This document shows positions 1,226 to 64,000 of a stretch of DNA of 64,000 nt, piece after piece. The stretch spans positions 11,222,001 through 11,286,000 of the forward strand of contig NC_043008.1 in NCBI RefSeq assembly GCF_006345805.1. Direction: 5' to 3'. The first letter of the stretch is position 1. Each line of letters starts with the position of its first letter. Below the pieces are notes generated by a model. The model did not search any database. It worked only from the letters and a program-made list of their open reading frames with translations, and was not told the origin of the DNA. The translations under genes were made by a program, and so were the position numbers. This DNA is from Octopus sinensis (taxonomy: Eukaryota).

Positions 1226-1277
1226 TTTCTTATTTCTTTATTGCCCACAAGGGGCTAAACAAAGAGGAGACAAACAA
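1226..1277 (-). mobile_element. Isolated 3' tail fragment of SINE group A, inverted relative to the copy at 777
   Basis: TATTTCTTTATTGCCCACAAGGGGCTAAAC is the reverse complement of the A tail. Confidence 0.75.
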
Positions 1278-2264
1278 CTCGCCTCTTGGTGATTGAGACT
1301 CTTGTAACTCTGAATGCTAAACGAGTGTGAATTACATGTATGCAATTTCGTGAATAAAGAGATGACATGTTATGAGTGTAAACTAAGAGAGGTCTTATGA
1401 ATAACACGACCTAGCGTGAATCATTGTGTTATAACTCTGGTTTCATTAATGCCCCAATATCTAGTGTTCATAATAGATCACGTCAAGAGATGCACATCTT
1501 TTAGTGGGAAACATTTACATGTAGATAGTTACAACTGCATGACATCAAATTACGTGATTCACAGCCAGCTTTGATTTCGATGCCGGAAACCCATTGTTAA
1601 CAGCAGGTGTAACTTTTATTTTTTTAGTATCTTGTGATCATTCGTTTTAATATTTGAGAAAATGCTTACTAATTACTCACCATTCCATTTTAGAGAGACT
1701 AAGAGGTAATATGTAACGTCTGTTTGGGACGAAGGAGTAAGATTTTCTTGTGTCTCATAATGGATGTGGAATGGTGTACTGGGTCAAAATAGATATCACA
1801 AATTCACAAGAAGATTTCATCTCTTACATGTATGTGTTTCCGTGGTGTGGTGCTGTTTATATTTGAAACCCCTAGGTTGTAAAGATTTCTCCATTGTTCG
1901 GGAATGAAAAATAGACAATCTTATGCAAATAACCAAACCATGGTTAAATTTAGATATTTAAATATTTTGATTTATACACGTCCACTGACTCTAGCTTCAT
2001 GATCACCAAATGTTTAGCTATGTTATTAGATATCTAAACATAGCTTCCCTACAAAGATAAAGGAAAACTCGAAATACAGCCACAAGACTGAAATCATTCT
2101 CATTGTATTTGTTTCTCTAAAGAAGTTGTACCTGTATGGAATACCCATAAAATCCTAAGGGAATAATGATATTAATCATAAAGTCTTACCGCAAACACTT
2201 TCAACATTAGTCATCATCAATGTATTTTACTCGTTTAGTTGCAGTAATAGTGAAGAATTCATTA

Positions 2265-9914: not shown

Positions 9915-10370
9915 TATTTCTTTATTGTTCACATGGGGATGAACTTAGAGGATACAAACAAGGACAGACAACGGGATTAAATTGACTACATCGACCCCAG
10001 TGCGTAACTGGTACTTATTTAATCGATCCCGAAAGGATGAAAGGCAAAGCCGTCCTTGGCGGAATTTGATCTCAGAACGTAACGGTAGACGAAATGCCGC
10101 AAAGCATTTCGCCCAGCGTGCTAAGAATTCTGCCAGCTCACCGGAAAACTTGTGTGTTTATTAAACTTTAACCAATAAAAGTGGCACACACTTAATCATG
10201 TTGTTTCAAATATTGGTGCAAATTTAGCGGAGGATAAGTCAATTATGCCAACCCTAGTTTTCAAATTCGACTTCGAAACTATGAATGTCAAAGTCAGTCT
10301 TGGTGGAATTTGGATTCTTGTTGCAAAGATGCGGAGGAAATGCTGCAAAGCATTTTGTCCAGAACGCTAT
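9915..10370 (-). mobile_element. SINE group A copy (9915-10142) plus an older degraded A-like copy (about 10205-10370)
   Basis: Reverse-complement match to the A head, body and tail. Confidence 0.75.
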
Positions 10371-25320: not shown

Positions 25321-25924
25321 TTAACTGTGTTAGGTTAAGCCGTTAACTAAATGTTTAGGGAGACACCCACGATAAGAACAAATTAGACCCCAGCTTGAGT
25401 TGTCGGATAACCCGGCATTTATAAACCAAAACTTTTGGTGGAAATCCATATATTTCATAATTGATTTTGTATTGGATGGATTTCAAAACTCAATTAATGC
25501 AATATTCTCTTCGTGCTTCATTTCTTTGAATGAGAAGATGAAGCTGTTCTCTTTAGGTATATAACTGGAGATTTTCTGCCCCGCTTCCCATTTGCTTTTG
25601 AAATAACTCACATTCTGGAGAGTACAATGACAATATGGGATTTCCATTGAGGCGTGGTTGCTAAATCTCTATGTCAGTATACCTACCAGTGCAAATACAT
25701 CAACGTAGTATTCACATTTCAAATTACCTCCATGGAATCAGAAATCGATCTGAACTTCCGCTTGAGGTACGCTTGGACCCGATTTCAAATTAGCCGCATA
25801 GTGTCTACATCATTCTCTTTCAGATTATGGTAAAATATTAGAGTCTAACGATTAAAACTCGTGATAAATTTGTAACATATTCATCCAACGTGTAACAGTA
25901 AAGATTATAGGATAATATTAATTT

Positions 25925-26210
25925 CAGATTTTGGTTCGAGGACATCCATTTCAGGAGAGTTGCTAAGTCGACGCCAAAGTTCACCAGGTACTTATTTTAT
26001 CGACCACAAAAAGATGAAAAGCAAAGTCTAACTCGGTGGATTGTAGGACAATATTATAATGCGAAAATAAACCGCCCTTTCGTCCGTCTTTACTTCCTGA
26101 GTTCAAATTCTACTGAGGTTGGCTTTGCCATTCATTCATTTCGGGAATATAATTGACTTACCACTCCCATGAGAGTGCTGGCCTTGTGCCAAAATTTGAA
26201 ACCAATATTA
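25925..26210. mobile_element. Two degraded, oppositely oriented SINE A-like fragments
   Basis: GGTACTTATTTTATCGACC...GCAAAGTC (minus) and CTGAGTTCAAATTCTACTGAGG (plus). Confidence 0.55.
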
Positions 26211-34977: not shown

Positions 34978-35208
34978 TATGTATATATATTCATATATGA
35001 GTATGTATAATTTAGGGACGAACAGACAGATATAGAAAATTATATGCATCAATCAGGACAGTTGAAATGCCTTCGAGATAGAGTGAAGTATGATACATTA
35101 GCAACACGGAGACTATATAGAGACAAAAGTGTGTCTAGGCAGATGCATATGAACACAGAAATCCCTTTAAATGGCGATATTATTATTATTATTATTAGAG
35201 AATGTAGA

Positions 35209-35610
35209 GGCGGCGAGCTGGCAGAAACGTTAGCACGCCGGGCGAAATGCGTAGCCGTATTTCATCTGCCGTTAAGTTCTGAGTTCAAATTCCGCCGAGG
35301 TCGACTTTGCCTTTCATCCTTTCGGGGTCGATTAAATAAGTACTAGTTACACACTGGAGTCGATGCAATTGACTTAATCTCTTTGTCTGTCTTTGTTTGT
35401 TCTCTCTGTGTTTAGCCCCTTGTGGGTAATAAAGAAATAGGTATTTTGTCTGCCATTACGTTCTGAGTTCAAATTCCGCCGAGGTATACTTTGGCTTTCA
35501 TTGTTTCGGAGTCGATAAATGAAGTACCGGTTGCGTAATGAGGTGGATGTAATTGACTGGCCTCCTCCCCCAAAATTTTCGGGCCTGTGCCTCGAGTAGA
35601 AAATTTTATT
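35209..35610 (+). mobile_element. SINE group A full copy followed by the 3' part of an older A-type copy
   Basis: ...AAAGAAATA|GGTATTTTGTCTGCC junction at about 35439; the second unit has a different tail (GACTGGCCTCCTCCCCAAAATTTTCGGGCC). Confidence 0.85.
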
Positions 35611-35617
35611 AGAGATA

Positions 35618-37878: not shown

Positions 37879-38352
37879 AGCTTATATAAGTTATATAAGT
37901 TTGTATGAGTTTCGAAGCAAGTTTACTGATATTAACAGCCATGAAAGTGAAGATACTCTTTTAACCCTTTCGTATATGAGCATGCCATTTCCGGCCCCAA
38001 TATTCTGCCAGTTTTATACTCAAAGCAGTCAAATCCTTAAATCTCACACAGCTCTTAAAATGTAATTGTAAACCTAAACAATCACAAAGCTATCAAAATA
38101 TATCGAAGCTATGAAGTAATCTATGATTAATTCAAAAAATGCGAATAAATAAGCATAACATTTTTCAGAGTAAGCTGAGTGCTAACGGTTTAACATCTAA
38201 CCAAATTACAATGATGAGGTCTCTGATACGACTAGGTGACTCGCTAGTTCTCTGTTTTGTTTAAAAGCAGAGTTGTTTTGATGAGTGTTATGAATACATT
38301 AATTAAGTCCAAATACCAGGCTACTCTTGTTATTATATATAAACGAACATAA

Positions 38353-38583
38353 GGCGGCGAGTTGGCAGAAAGGTTAGCACGCCGGGCAAAATGCGGAGCT
38401 GTATTTCGTCTGCCGTTACGTTCTGAGTTCAAATTCCACCGAGGTCGACTTTGCATTTCATCCTTTCGGGGTCGATAAATTAAGTACCAGTTACGCCCTG
38501 GGGTCGATATAATCGACTTAATCCGTTTGTCTGTCCTTGTTTGTCCCCTCTGTGTTTAGCACCTTGTGGGCAGTAAAGAAATA
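38353..38583 (+). mobile_element. SINE group A, monomeric
   Basis: Full head-to-tail match; probable TSD TATATATAAACGA at 38334-38346 and 40221-40233. Confidence 0.9.
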
Positions 38584-38597
38584 TATATATATATTGT

Positions 38598-40215
38598 ATT
38601 GGCATCCTTTCTGTCTCGGGAGACAATGGAGTTGCGCATTTAAAAAAAAAAAAATTTTTATAGTCTAGTCCGGCTTTTATATTTCATGTCCTGATACATT
38701 TCCTGCTGTGGCTGTTTAGCCCTATCCTGGACAAACACTCCCTCTCGCAGGTACCGCAAATGTAGTGAAGACTGTTCCTGGCTGGTTGTAGTGCCATAGT
38801 CTCTTGTTTACGTCTCTTCCTTTCTTTCCATTTCTCCTCTCTTTCTCTGTCACTCTTTTGTATTCCCTCTTTTACTGTACGTCGCCATTCTCCACGGTTG
38901 CCGGCAACTGCCTCCGAACCGCTAATATTGATGTTGCAGGCCTTCATATCCCTTTTGCAAACATCCCTGTAACGTAAGATCGGTCTACCCACAGACCTAG
39001 TACCCCTAGCAAGCGCTCCGTAGAGTATGTCCTTGGGGATTCTGCCATCTTTCATACGGCTAACATGCCCAAGCCATCTCATACGTCTTTGGGTGAGGAG
39101 TGCAAACATGCTTGGTATTCCTGCTTGCCTGAGGACATCTTTGTTGGGGATATGATTCTGTCATTTGATGCGGAGGATTTTTCGGAGGCAGCGCAGGTGA
39201 AAGATGTTTAGGCGACGCTCTTGGCGTGTGTATAGCGTCCAGGTCTCGCTTCCATACAGTAGAGTGCTGAGTACACATGCCTGGTAGATCTTCATGTTCG
39301 TGGTCTTGGTCAGCTTATTGTTGTGCCAAGCCCGTTTGGCGAGTTGGGCCATCGCAGCAGCTGCCTTGCCAATGCGTATATTGAGCTCAGTGTCAAGGGA
39401 TAGGTTGTGGGTGACGGTAGAGCCCAGATAGGTAAACTTCTCCACCTCTTGTAATCTGTGGTCTCCAATGTGTATGTTTGGGATGTCCGATGTAGCCTGG
39501 CCCATGATATTGGTCTTCTTAAGGCTAATAGCTAAGCCAAAGTCGTTACATGCTTGCTCAAAACAGTTAATGAGCCTTTGGAGGGCTTCTTCTGTGTGTG
39601 TTACCAGAGCGGCATCATCAGCAAATAACATCTCCTTGATCAGGACTTTTCTGATTTTGGTCTTGGCACGCAGACGCGAGAGATTGAACAGTTTCCCGTC
39701 ACTTCTACTGTGCAGAAGCACTCCATCATCTGATGTCTGAAAGGCATGTGAAAGTAAGAGTGAGAAAAAGATGCCAAACAATGTAGGAGCGAGGACACAG
39801 CCTTGCTTTACTCCGTTTTTTATTTGGAAGGCGGCTGATGTTGAACCGTTGTGCTGTATGGTGCCTTGCATGTCATCATGGAAAGACTTGATGATCCTCA
39901 GCAGCTTTGGTGGACATCCGATTTTTTGGAGCAGGAGGAAGAGGCCTGTTCTGCTTACCGAGTCAAAAGCCTTTGTTAGATCAATGAAGGCTATATATAA
40001 TGGCATATTCTGCTCTCTGGACTTCTCCTGAAGTTGGCGTATGGAGAATATCATATCGATAGTTGATCTGCTTCTTCTAAAGCCACACTGCGATTCCGGA
40101 TAGATTCGAGAAGCAAGTAGTTGTAGCCTGGCCAGGATAACGCGGGCAAAAGTCTTTCCAACAGTGCTTAGAAGGGATATACCACGGTTGTTGTTACAAT
40201 CACCACGGTCACCTG
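38598..40215 (-). mobile_element. 5'-truncated RTE-clade (BovB-like) LINE
   Basis: RT motifs RGISLLS, PESQCGFR, FIDLTKAFD, GVKQGCVLAP, LFADD, YLGS; RTE-type 3' tail CCATTGTCTCCCGAGACAGAAAGGATGCCA. Confidence 0.97.
38684..40213 (-). pseudogene. RTE reverse-transcriptase ORF, N-terminally truncated, with one in-frame TGA (39161-39163)
   Basis: ORFs 39161..40300 and 38684..39109 are in frame (ILRIK*QNHIPNKDVL...MFALL); C-terminal CxxC...HxxxC motif; the first ~29 aa of the listed ORF come from flanking DNA. Confidence 0.92.
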
Positions 40216-41704
40216 GTATATATATATAAACGATTATGACTTGTAAATGACTTTTCTCAAGGAATCGAGTTCTATAAGTGTGAAATAACATACAAAACAT
40301 AGCAAATACATACGACTGAAAAACAAAGCAAATATTATCTTTTAAATGAAGTCACACAAAATAACTGAATTTATATGATATTTAATGTAATATTTAAAAG
40401 GAAGATGAAATCGTTGGAAGACATGGAAATGTTATGATGTTATAAGATTAATTTATACACAAATACATCTCTAAAAGAATATTTCGTGTATTCCCGGGAA
40501 AGAATAGTAAATATTTGAAAGTCAAAGCTTATGTGTAAAAGAAAATGACCGAGTTAAACTATGAGACTTGTATACGAAAAACAAAGAAGAACATCGCTGT
40601 AGAATTCTTCACAGCGATCTATAGATGTCTGATCTTAATTAATTATAAAATGTAAAACAACGCACTTACGGTCTGAAAAATGAAAATTTCGATGATGAAG
40701 AGATCTAGAAATATCAAGAAATAACAAAAAAGTGAAAAACAAAGCGAAAGAAAATAATAGCCGTCCGGCAAATAAACAAATGCTGTAGTTCATGAATATT
40801 TTCCATCATAATTTCTAATACAGTCAAAGGTCAATAGTGTAAACCGCTGATAGCTATTTAATCTCGCACAGTGTGATGTAAAGTTGAGTTAAACCAGGTG
40901 GAGTTTGAACAAAATAGAACTGTGTGTATTATAAAAATGAATTCACTGTATATGTTCTTCTTCTAAAAGTTGGTAAACGTGATTTCCTCTGTTGTGATTC
41001 GAATTGTTTTAAGCATAGAATTCAAATACTATTTACCGAATAATTGAAGAAGGATGTAGGTGTTAATTTTCTCAGCTATTCGTAAACAGCTAGCGAGATA
41101 ATATTAGAATCTACAAATGTTAATGAAAATATGAACCGAATAATAGAGGGTCTGATAAAATGTACTTCAAGAATGCTTTAGAATTGGTATACACCAGGCT
41201 GAATTATATGTACAGCTCACAATGGCGGAGAAAACGATGAAGATTCTGTTATTTGACAAATACATTATCGTGCTGGCTGAGGAGAATGAATACTTCGCTA
41301 ATTAATGAACACAAATATCCATAAATTAACTCAATGCATTTTATTCCACAGTCTAATCATTTACTCATTCCATCAGTAATGTAAATCCTATGTCGGCCAA
41401 CTCCCTATATACGTGTATATGCATATCCATATGTATTTGTATATACATAATATACGTATATACATAATATACCTATAGCTCAGCAGTCATAAGATTGCTT
41501 GCTAATGAGTGATAGCCACCAGAGCTATATAAAACTAGGAACAACCAAGCAATTGACGTAACAACTGGCTTATCTCCAATGCATGCAATTGGTGGTAGCT
41601 TGTAATTGTATACTGTCTACATTAAATAATATAATTATATATATATGTGTGTGTGCGTGTGTGCGTGTATGTGCGCGTATGTACGTGTGAGTGTGTGTGT
41701 GTGA

Positions 41705-60628: not shown

Positions 60629-62280
60629 AGGCGATGAGCTGGCAGAATCCTTTGCACTCTGGACAAAATGCTTACAAAGTATTTTTTCCGCCCTCATATT
60701 CTGAGTTCAAGCTCTGAGGAGGAAACATAAAATAAGTTCGAATTAAGTATTGTTTTCGATGCAATTCACTTATATCCTCCCGTGAAATTTCTGGCTTTGT
60801 ACTAGAATTTGAAATCAATATATTCTTCTAATAAAGGCGGCGAGCTGGCGCAATCTTTAGCACGCTGGAAGGAATGCTTAGCGGTATTCCACCCGTTGCT
60901 ACGTTCTGAGTTCAAATTCCGCCGAGGTCGACTTTACCTTTCATCCTTTTGGCGTCGATAAATTAAGTACCAGTGAAACACTGGGACCGATATAATCGAT
61001 AAATCCCATTCCTCGAAATTTTATGCCTTGTGCCTGTAGTAGAAAGGCGGCGAGCTGGCACAATCGTTAACATCCCAAAATGCTTAGGTGTATTTCGTCC
61101 GTCTTCATGTGCTGAGTTCGAATTCCGCCGAGGTTGAGTTGCGTTTTAACCTTGAGGCACCAGTTGAGCGGTGAGATCAATGTAATTGACTGGCTCCCCA
61201 CTCCGATCTTCATGCCTAAATTTGAAATCTATATTTGTTTCCTAATGTGGACACAAGGCCAGCAATTTTGCAGGAAGCTGCTCCGTGGAAACATCGATTT
61301 ATTAAATGCGACAGGATGAAATACCAAACTCAGTTAGTTTTGTCGGATTTGATCACAGAACGTAAAGTTCTGGAAGAAATACGCAAGGCGTATTCCCTAA
61401 CCCTCTAACGATTCTGTTAACTCACCGTCATTATAGGATTTATTTATATTTTCTGAGGCGGCGATCTGGCAGAACCATGGTTGTTTCACGCTAAATGCTT
61501 TGTGGCACTTCATCTACCTTTAGGTTCTAAGTTCAAATTTCACAGAGGTCGCATGTGCCTTGCGGGCTGTGTGAAAAAAATTGAAACCTTAGTAGTTTTT
61601 TCTTCTATAGGCCTGATATCGTGAGGTAAGATGGGTAAGTCGACTACATCGACCCCATTACTCAAATGGTAGTTATTTCATCGACCCCGAAGGTTTGAAA
61701 GTCATTCTCAGTGAAATTTGAACTCAGAATATAAAGACGGAAGAAATACGGCTAATCATTTTGTCCGGGATACTAACAACTCTGTCAGGCCGCCCCTTCA
61801 TAGCATTCATTAGTAATGAGTTTAAAATTTTCGTACAAGGCCAGAAATTTGTGGGGAGGGCGTAAGACGATGACATCGATCCTAGTGCTTCACTAGTACT
61901 TATCATATCGACCCTGAAATGATGAAATTCAAAGTTAACCTCGGTGAAATTTGAACTTGGACGTGAAGAAGGACGAAATACCTATTTCTTTACTACCCAC
62001 GAAGGGCTAAACACAAAGAGGACAAACAAGGGCAGACAAACTGATTAAGTCGATTATATCGGCCCCAGTGCGTAACTGGTACTTATTTAATCGACTCCGA
62101 AAGGATGAAAGGCAAAGTCGACCTCGGCGGAATTTGAACTCAGAACGTAGCGGCAGACGAAATACGGCTACGCATTTCGCCCGGCGTGCTAACGTTTCTG
62201 CCAGCTCGCAGAAATACCGAAGGACGAAATACCGCTAATCGTCTTGTTCAGCGTGTTAACGCCTCTGCAAGATCGTGTAG
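60629..62280. mobile_element. Cluster of about eight SINE A-type copies in both orientations
   Basis: Plus-strand heads at about 60630, 60836, 61046, 61457; minus copies at about 61245-61430, 61600-61797, 61825-62278. Confidence 0.8.
61983..62210 (-). mobile_element. Young SINE A nested in an older A-type copy with a 15-bp TSD
   Basis: GAAGGACGAAATACC at 61968-61982 and 62219-62233. Confidence 0.9.
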
Positions 62281-62599
62281 TATTCATTAATAATGCAATA
62301 TGTATGTCAAATATAATTTCATCAATCTCGCAATTTTCGCCAAAGACAATATAGTTTGGAGAAAGAGAGGAAATATGTTTCCTTGACGAGAATACCTATT
62401 TCCTACTTTAGCAAAACTGACATTGTTTTCATTATATCTAATGTCACAGTAAAAGAAATTGAAAATCAAACTCGTTTATATTATTCGATTCTCGGACACA
62501 GCAGCTATTTCATTTTCAATACTTGAAAATGAAATAATTGATTCTTCGTTCATTTCGTTGACTACCTTACGTTCGTCTAGAAAAAAGAAATCTTTCCAC

Positions 62600-63125
62600 A
62601 TTCTGCTGGTGTCAGTCATTGGATTGCAGCCATGAACGCCTTGAAGATTTTAAGTCGAGCAGATTAACCATAGAGTCACTTTTATCGAACGGCTAAGATG
62701 CGGGCACATAAACTAACATCGGTTGTAGAGATATTAGCAAAGACAGTCACACAACGAAACACACACACACACACACACACGCACACACACACATACACAC
62801 ACACACATACACTCACTCATGTATATATGGTATATATGATGGGCATCCACACAGTTCCCATATATTAAATGTAGTCACAATAAGTCGTCGCATAGCTTTA
62901 ATAGAAGCTACCTGCCCAACGTTCCATTCGTTAGTAAAGTATTTAAACTCTTGGCAAAAGACCAGCTATCTCCGAGAGGACGTAAGCCGATGTCATCGAC
63001 CCTATTGCATCACTAGTAGTTATCCTCTCGACCCTGAAATGATGGAATGCAAAATCCACCGCAGTGAACTCGAACCCGAGAGCACCTGTTTTACAAGTTA
63101 GCTTCTTAACCACATAACCATATCT
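62600..63125 (-). mobile_element. Strongly degraded SINE D and A remnants
   Basis: TCAGTCATTGGATTGCAGCCATG, CATCGGTTG, CGACCCTGAAATGATGGAATGCAAA motifs. Confidence 0.5.
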
Positions 63126-64000
63126 ACGCTTATCCCTGCTTTTATCCCATAAATTTAGAAAAATTATAATTAAATGATCTTGTCTAGGTTGGTAGTCTAA
63201 CCAAGTAGTTTAACGCCATGTCTTTTTCTTGACTGACTTAAATGGTGCATACTGCTGAGAGCATTCTAGGCAGGACTCCTGTCTGGGTCTAACTACCTCG
63301 GGTTTCGAAGAATTGTGGAGCAAAAACAGAGCAAAAGGATAATTTATCTATAAGAAATTTCAGATATGTTTTGTTATTTAGTATACTTGTTTAGTTATTC
63401 GAATTTATCTGCGAATGTTGCAATGCTCAGTATTCTTGCAAAAGGTCATTTCTCAGTAAGAAGTAGCCGGAGATATACAAAATATGATATAAATTCCTGT
63501 AGGTATAACACAGAACAATCAATGTAATGAAATTGTCTTCTTAAATTCAATGGGAGTTTATTATACGCTATTTTGTATTTCCTCGGATATTTTACACGGA
63601 GTTGCTCTCTTTCATGGTAATGGCGAACATAATAACATTTTGAAATTGCAATGGTCATTTCAATCATATTCAAGATAGTTTTATGATATTTACAAACACT
63701 GTAGCATACAAGACAATTAGGTCGTGTTCAATAAACGATTGACGTGATCGAAATTGCTAAAACGATTTTGATTATCGTAAACGAACACTGAAACGAGACG
63801 TTGATAACGACCAATAACATTGTAGCCGTTAATTACTTGGCAGCCGACGTGCATTCATATAATGCGATGTCAGCTTCATACTTTTGCATTTTTTACTGAG
63901 GTGATTGGTGATTTAAACGATAAGAAAATAAAAGAGCGTCACAATAGCTGTCAGCAAGCTGTTCTTTTTTCATTTTATACCTTAAAAGAACGGAAAAGTT

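Follow-up and report, generated by a model that had tools for sequence, protein, structure and literature searches.

Self-nesting, or homology-based replacement of an upstream target, is known from Alu insertions into A-rich parts of other Alus, from the 5' homologous joining of R2 and from the nesting of Zepp, and tRNA-derived SINEs, among them OK, occur in octopus. Two further tRNA-derived octopus SINEs, OR1 and OR2, go back to Ohshima and Okada (1994), cited here through later papers. SINEs account for 11.6% of the O. vulgaris assembly, in which most of the SINE families with recent activity are unclassified (PMC13282606, in the part consulted). In the crocodilian SINEU/Tx1-Mar system, the SINE prefers fixed regions of the DNA transposon Mariner-N4, a preference that is common to the identified LINE and concerns 13-90% of copies; doubt about hitch-hiking on a master was settled there via truncated copies (accessible sections of PMC4494074). 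Pairing of the RNA 3' end with the nicked target has been discussed for RTE, CR1, L2, I, R1Bm and R2Ol (PMC6007223, in excerpt).

The window analyzed here, which is the whole 64-kb stretch of DNA, contains a SINE family with a repeat unit of 232 bp, and a profile search of the window returned 23 family matches on both strands. Head and body are common to the family, and there are two tails, tail A, which closes with AAAGAAATA, and tail B, which runs out in ATT repeats; the sequence around the copies is AT-rich and full of microsatellites. As in SINE2 elements, the repeat is short (<1 kb), interspersed and non-coding, and its target-site duplications vary in length (15, 17, 13, 10 and ~12 bp). 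The A-box pattern is matched at +12 of the unit, and the putative B box (GTTCAAATT) is off the strict pattern in its last base, yet still the best-conserved block of the family. The tRNA likeness of SINE2 elements (at least 60% identity over 60 nt) was sought by gene and family searches, with 0 genes from ARAGORN and no match, tRNA or other, in Rfam. A tail-A profile found just the six SINE copies in the window.

The antisense translation of the SINE matches three proteins named Octopus bimaculoides (P0002, P0003 and P0018, among them an M1 peptidase and a PLAT-domain protein), indicating that the family is an octopus SINE; such translations within annotated proteins are probably gene-model artefacts. 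The queries of the protein search were antisense frames across the +49 junction described below, and successive rounds gave 0, 1, 17 and 3 matches, 18 of them distinct, which are cluster representatives whose counts are not frequencies. Two scans of bacterial and archaeal genomes gave 0 stray SINE copies, and no SINE match was obtained in plasmid and phage collections. Within the window, nine family copies lie within 2.5 kb (60630-63100), where those at 60630, 60836 and 61045 abut head to tail and the host of the nested insertion adjoins 61797. Two old 5'-truncated copies stand head to head at 25910-26210, the plus-strand one beginning near +53, inside the hairpin arm. Between duplication and head, 5-9 extra bases were observed in three copies (35202-35207, 38347-38351 and 62210-62218), and 5' filler of this kind seems to be common among the copies of the family.

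The end of tail A is joined to family sequence beginning at +49 in three places (1009/1010, 35439/35440 and 61983), corresponding to 3/5 full tail-A copies, or to 3/6 when the tail-only copy 1277-1231 is included. This recurrence, which the first-pass annotation had reported at about 1009 and 35439 for three of five copies, was confirmed, as the junction pattern was found three times with 0 mismatches (1001, 35431 and 61972-61991 minus) against 0.03 expected from a shuffle control that takes no account of both junction halves being repeats. The self-complementarity of the junction (GAAATA-GG-TATTTC) is exact at 61983, but the spacer is TG at 1009 and the right arm is TATTTT at 35439, and the DNA hairpins predicted at the junctions are weak (-1.8, -2.4 and -0.1 kcal/mol). 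In the family alignment, +49 falls in the stretch that separates the A and B boxes, where the loop of a predicted head hairpin has its 3' edge. Over 11 copies, 86% of the cells of this hairpin are paired, clearly more than in slid controls. The support for it from covariation is modest (16/500 shuffles, in related sequences). In whole-unit RNA folds (z -2.7 and z +0.6), the tail end does not pair with TATTTC, and the head hairpin takes the arm.

At 61983, a young tail-A copy of 227 bp (62209-61983, minus strand; head short of its first 5 bases) interrupts an older copy of the same family. An exact target-site duplication of 15 bp (GGTATTTCGTCCTTC) at host position +49 flanks the young copy, with the 5' copy at 62233-62219 and the 3' copy at 61982-61968 (both minus), and this 15-mer, which includes host-specific bases, occurs in two places in the whole window, both flanking the young copy. 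Nine extra bases at the 5' junction (GGTATTTCT; 62218-62210, minus), the first 8 of which repeat the start of the duplication, are inferred to be templated filler; the first-pass annotation did not mention them. The old host comprises a decayed head up to and including the duplication (62277-62219, or 62277-62234 without it, minus) and a 3' part of the tail-B type (61982-61818, minus), and it keeps its own older duplication of 17 bp (5' copy 62294-62278 and 3' copy 61817-61801, minus), whose copies are 15/17 identical. The young copy shows 10/227 differences from the window consensus, and the host, which is of an old subtype, shows 19/87 from the A consensus (p=9e-6). The event is a target-primed insertion with an older relative as its host, and the earlier description of a young A copy breaking an older family copy with a 15-bp duplication is borne out. 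The best match of the host 3' part (61816-61982, minus) is the copy at 63077 (62930-63140, minus), with 77% over 128 bases; its head is different, and many of its body variants are common with the old host. A common old subfamily, a head exchange or local conversion may lie behind this.

The chance of 1/4 non-dimer copies landing on the exact site is ~4e-4, or 2e-3 with ±2 bases allowed, if the family is taken to offer 14 such sites among 128,000 strand positions, and chance does not explain the nested event. Because the host at 61983 is of an old subtype, the same junction arose at least two times. The target choice is nevertheless not strict. A tail-A monomer (38352-38583, plus) sits in a run of TA and has its own duplication of 13 bp (TATATATAAACGA; 38334-38346 and 40221-40233), which its 3' end overlaps, indicating that tail A also inserts alone, with a short overlap of TA, where the target is unrelated. 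Together with the copies at 10141 and 1277-1231, which end elsewhere, this monomer leaves strict targeting unsupported. Unlike in a sequence-specific pair, where most insertions lie at one site and the upstream target half and the duplication are found everywhere, 1/4 non-dimer copies in this small sample lies at +49, and a host head with junction duplication is present at 1/3 junctions, namely at 61983 only. Of the sequence-specific self-targeting that the first-pass annotation had proposed, non-random insertion into the own family therefore stands, at the same base as the dimer junctions yet independent of them, and strict sequence specificity is contradicted by the copy in the TA run.

The far copy of TATATATAAACGA was pushed to 40221 by a later RT-encoding LINE fragment, a 5'-truncated element (38594-40217, minus; Pfam RVT_1) that entered the TA run where the 38352 SINE ends, in tail-to-tail orientation, and that is putatively RTE-like by its motifs. 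As the partner of the tail-A SINE, this LINE was rejected on account of its different 3' end. An older tail-A monomer (9915-10141, minus; 32/227 differences) is followed by non-family sequence, and a search for its outer duplication found none. The mini copy at 1226-1285 (minus) consists of 8 head-like bases and the last 47 bases of tail A, followed by AGAAA, with a probable duplication of 12 bp with 1 mismatch (14/17 if extended). Its two parts meet where a predicted long-range stem between head and tail has its base, and a skip of the reverse transcriptase would fit.

The reading favored here, to which a probability of roughly 40% is assigned, is that read-through RNA carrying GGUAUUUCGUC after the tail pairs with a nicked +49 target and so guides tail-A insertion into the own family. 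A different explanation, which is unlikely but has some evidence behind it, places the preference in the endonuclease of a partner LINE or in the DNA structure of the head hairpin; the insertions would be independent, and the new 5' end would anneal to and replace the head of a young, similar host, giving apparent dimers by the homologous 5' joining that the first-pass annotation had proposed. The nick is base-exact at +49 in the one anchored case, and target-preferring SINEs are known, as with SINEU in Mariner-N4 (PMC4494074, available portion). But of the four copies outside the dimers, one alone lies at +49, and the sequence hit at 38352 (TATATATAAACGA) does not resemble this site. For the DNA structure, the inverted repeat of the hairpin is largely decayed in the old host, and a cruciform target there was rejected for this reason.

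The two remaining +49 junctions lie within dimers. Dimer 1 (776-1098, plus) consists of a full tail-A unit (776-1009) and a second unit from +49 (1010-1098); it has no host head, the 3' end of its second unit has been lost to other sequence, and a duplication was sought at the junction and outside with none found. A 28-bp minisatellite of 3.5 copies (1101-1199) follows the cut end of this second unit. Dimer 2 (35208-35605, plus) consists of a full tail-A unit (35208-35439) and a second unit from +49 that ends in tail B. Its junction is likewise without a host head and without duplication of the site, and the dimer as a whole is flanked by the 10-bp TTATTAGAGA (35192-35201 and 35606-35615) within an ATT run, which both a dimer master and independent joining would allow.

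If the dimers at 776 and 35208 were progeny of one amplified master, the nested copy would be a coincidence or the product of DNA repair copying a dimer into a staggered break, with no targeting at all. Shared diagnostic mutations in the second units, the sign by which the first-pass annotation would have recognized such a master, are present in one form and absent in another. Both second units belong to one rare subtype (2/2 vs 0/10 free copies): they carry 60T and 64G, as tail-A units do, which 0/9 free copies have (p=0.018; a tenth free copy is also without them, and the count leaves out fragments 14943, 37575, 58900 and 63077 and copy 26040, not aligned there). The first units have 194T in common. 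But the second units share no private substitution over 88 bases, and the two first units have different states of the 126/129 marker, in which each agrees with copies outside the dimers. Over the five units, 14 columns are informative, 5 of these being end gaps, and their splits are in conflict. The dense cluster of nine copies in 2.5 kb around the nested copy raises the local odds of a coincidence; even so, the exact base would be hit with a probability of ~1e-3 (estimated from ~7 sites in 5,000 strand positions). A host that is ~20% diverged would be a poor partner for strand invasion, and the 15-bp duplication is typical of target-primed insertion. On this evidence, a master without targeting appears quite improbable.

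The divergence of first and second units, a comparison proposed earlier for the same question, gave different answers for the two dimers. In the dimer with its junction at 1010, the second unit is no older than the first (3/88 vs 10/232 differences, p=1.0). At 35440, the second unit has diverged further than the first, with 9/88 vs 11/232 (p=0.12-0.13), or 14/118 vs 11/232 after removal of five presumed subfamily sites (p=0.026). This somewhat older second unit at 35440, together with the lack of shared private changes and the differing markers of the first units, also speaks for independent insertions under an endonuclease preference, for which a suitable host exists: a free tail-B monomer of the second-unit subtype is present in the O. 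bimaculoides protein P0018, indicating that such hosts are available. On the other hand, both second units are of a subtype that is not found in 10 free copies, and over its first 56 bases the unit at 35208 is identical to the A consensus, showing nothing of the older host head that replacement would bring in.

The dimers might also be chimeras, each formed separately by a template jump: on reaching the head hairpin of a tail-B RNA, the reverse transcriptase would halt with GAAATACC as the end of its cDNA and switch to a tail-A RNA at the 3' end of the latter. Their arrangement, with a full 5' unit, a truncated 3' unit and a single outer duplication, is consistent with such jumps, as are the mixed subfamilies and ages, the position of the site at the loop edge of the conserved hairpin and the other copy that begins near +53. 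Jumps of this kind have been described for SINEU-2 and snRNA chimeras, but the SINEU-2 junctions scatter over up to 22 bases (both in the consulted text of PMC4494074), and the three junctions here coincide to the base. The junction hairpins are weak, and the covariation of the head hairpin is modest. In this reading a target nick with the same end would be captured likewise, helped by the palindrome, and the reading as a whole is regarded as distinctly unlikely.

In the reading by read-through RNA, the consensus of tail A has no T4 run. Pol III terminates at T runs, and tail-A transcripts without a terminator would continue downstream, into whatever sequence follows the tail. Templates in which a full A unit is followed by family body from +49 would be provided by the dimers. 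Copied whole from its second tail, a dimer RNA would give a headless dimer enclosed as one unit by a duplication, which is the state at 35208. If the reverse transcriptase of a presumed partner LINE instead started at tail A, the next 11 bases would anneal to another family copy at a nick whose position could vary within +49 to +59. The junction would come out identical, flanked by a duplication of the usual kind, which is the state at 61983. Tail A inserts elsewhere too, with a short TA overlap, so that the preference would be partial. The founding junction, which would come first in the proposed order of events, may have been aided by the complementarity of the tail end to TATTTC at the hairpin loop edge, although this is speculative.

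The RNA-guided reading is supported by the exact 15-bp duplication in a host with its own older duplication, by the low chance of that hit and by the missing T4 run. It is also supported by 60T and 64G in the second units, by the young second unit at 1010 and by the exact A consensus at the start of the 35208 unit, and the RNA-target pairing discussed for other elements in PMC6007223 speaks for it as well. The TA overlap at 38352 is in agreement with it, and so is a second recurring junction. Among the 18 protein matches, six tail-A ends are detectable in five proteins, and in 2/6 (P0001 and P0016; P0007 is ambiguous) tail A is joined to the family head at +16 (AGAAACG), where tail end and target overlap directly. 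The mini copy at 1230 of the window continues with AGAAAC, as in the +16 junction. Coming from diverged translations, the +16 evidence is supporting, not firm. The same reading is weakened by the lack of private substitutions common to the second units, by the first units differing at 126/129 and by the older second unit at 35440. It is further weakened by the free host subtype in P0018, by there being only one anchored event and by the 18 proteins, which hold no clear case of the +49 junction and a merely suggestive one in P0010.

A wider proposal, which we regard as tentative and on the doubtful side, is RNA-guided homing of the SINE into its own family. Every +49 insertion would give read-through RNA with the target sequence behind its tail, and this RNA would steer more insertions to that base between the A and B boxes of other copies, disabling their promoters and making new dimer masters. 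The site at +16 would suggest that such homing happened more than once. If read-through RNA does confer site preference, target choice could evolve without any change of the LINE endonuclease, dimeric SINEs could arise repeatedly at fixed junctions, and a family could knock out its own relatives. If there were just a dimer master and one nested copy, the matter would be an annotation detail.

A literature search, judged on titles and the beginnings of abstracts, found no paper on the +49 junction, which does not establish its absence from print. For OK, OR1 and OR2 in particular, the accessible parts of the literature searched contain no description of this junction, and no consensus of the three was found in the available portions of the supplements of PMC4824008, PMC4758252, PMC5804259, PMC5786205 and PMC13282606. 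The family described here resembles OK, OR1 and OR2 as an abundant short interspersed repeat with Pol III-like boxes, a likeness of description.

Like SINEU/Tx1-Mar, the octopus SINE inserts, with a partial preference, into another repeat at a fixed place and raises the same doubt about a master; unlike that system, where the target is a DNA transposon and the LINE is identified, its target is its own family. With the dimeric (complex) SINEs of SINEBase, as represented in the consulted part of PMC3531059, it has in common that two family units are joined and, possibly, amplified as one, but the octopus second unit is headless, with the B box only, and the same junction also occurs as a fresh, duplication-flanked insertion. 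As in the elements treated in PMC6007223 (in the excerpt available), the 3' sequence of the RNA would help to choose or use the nick; the guide of those elements is their own terminal repeat or the rDNA flank, whereas the octopus guide would be a piece of the SINE body obtained by read-through. The cases of Alu, R2 and Zepp outlined at the beginning differ from the octopus SINE in using poly(A) targets or autonomous site-specific elements.
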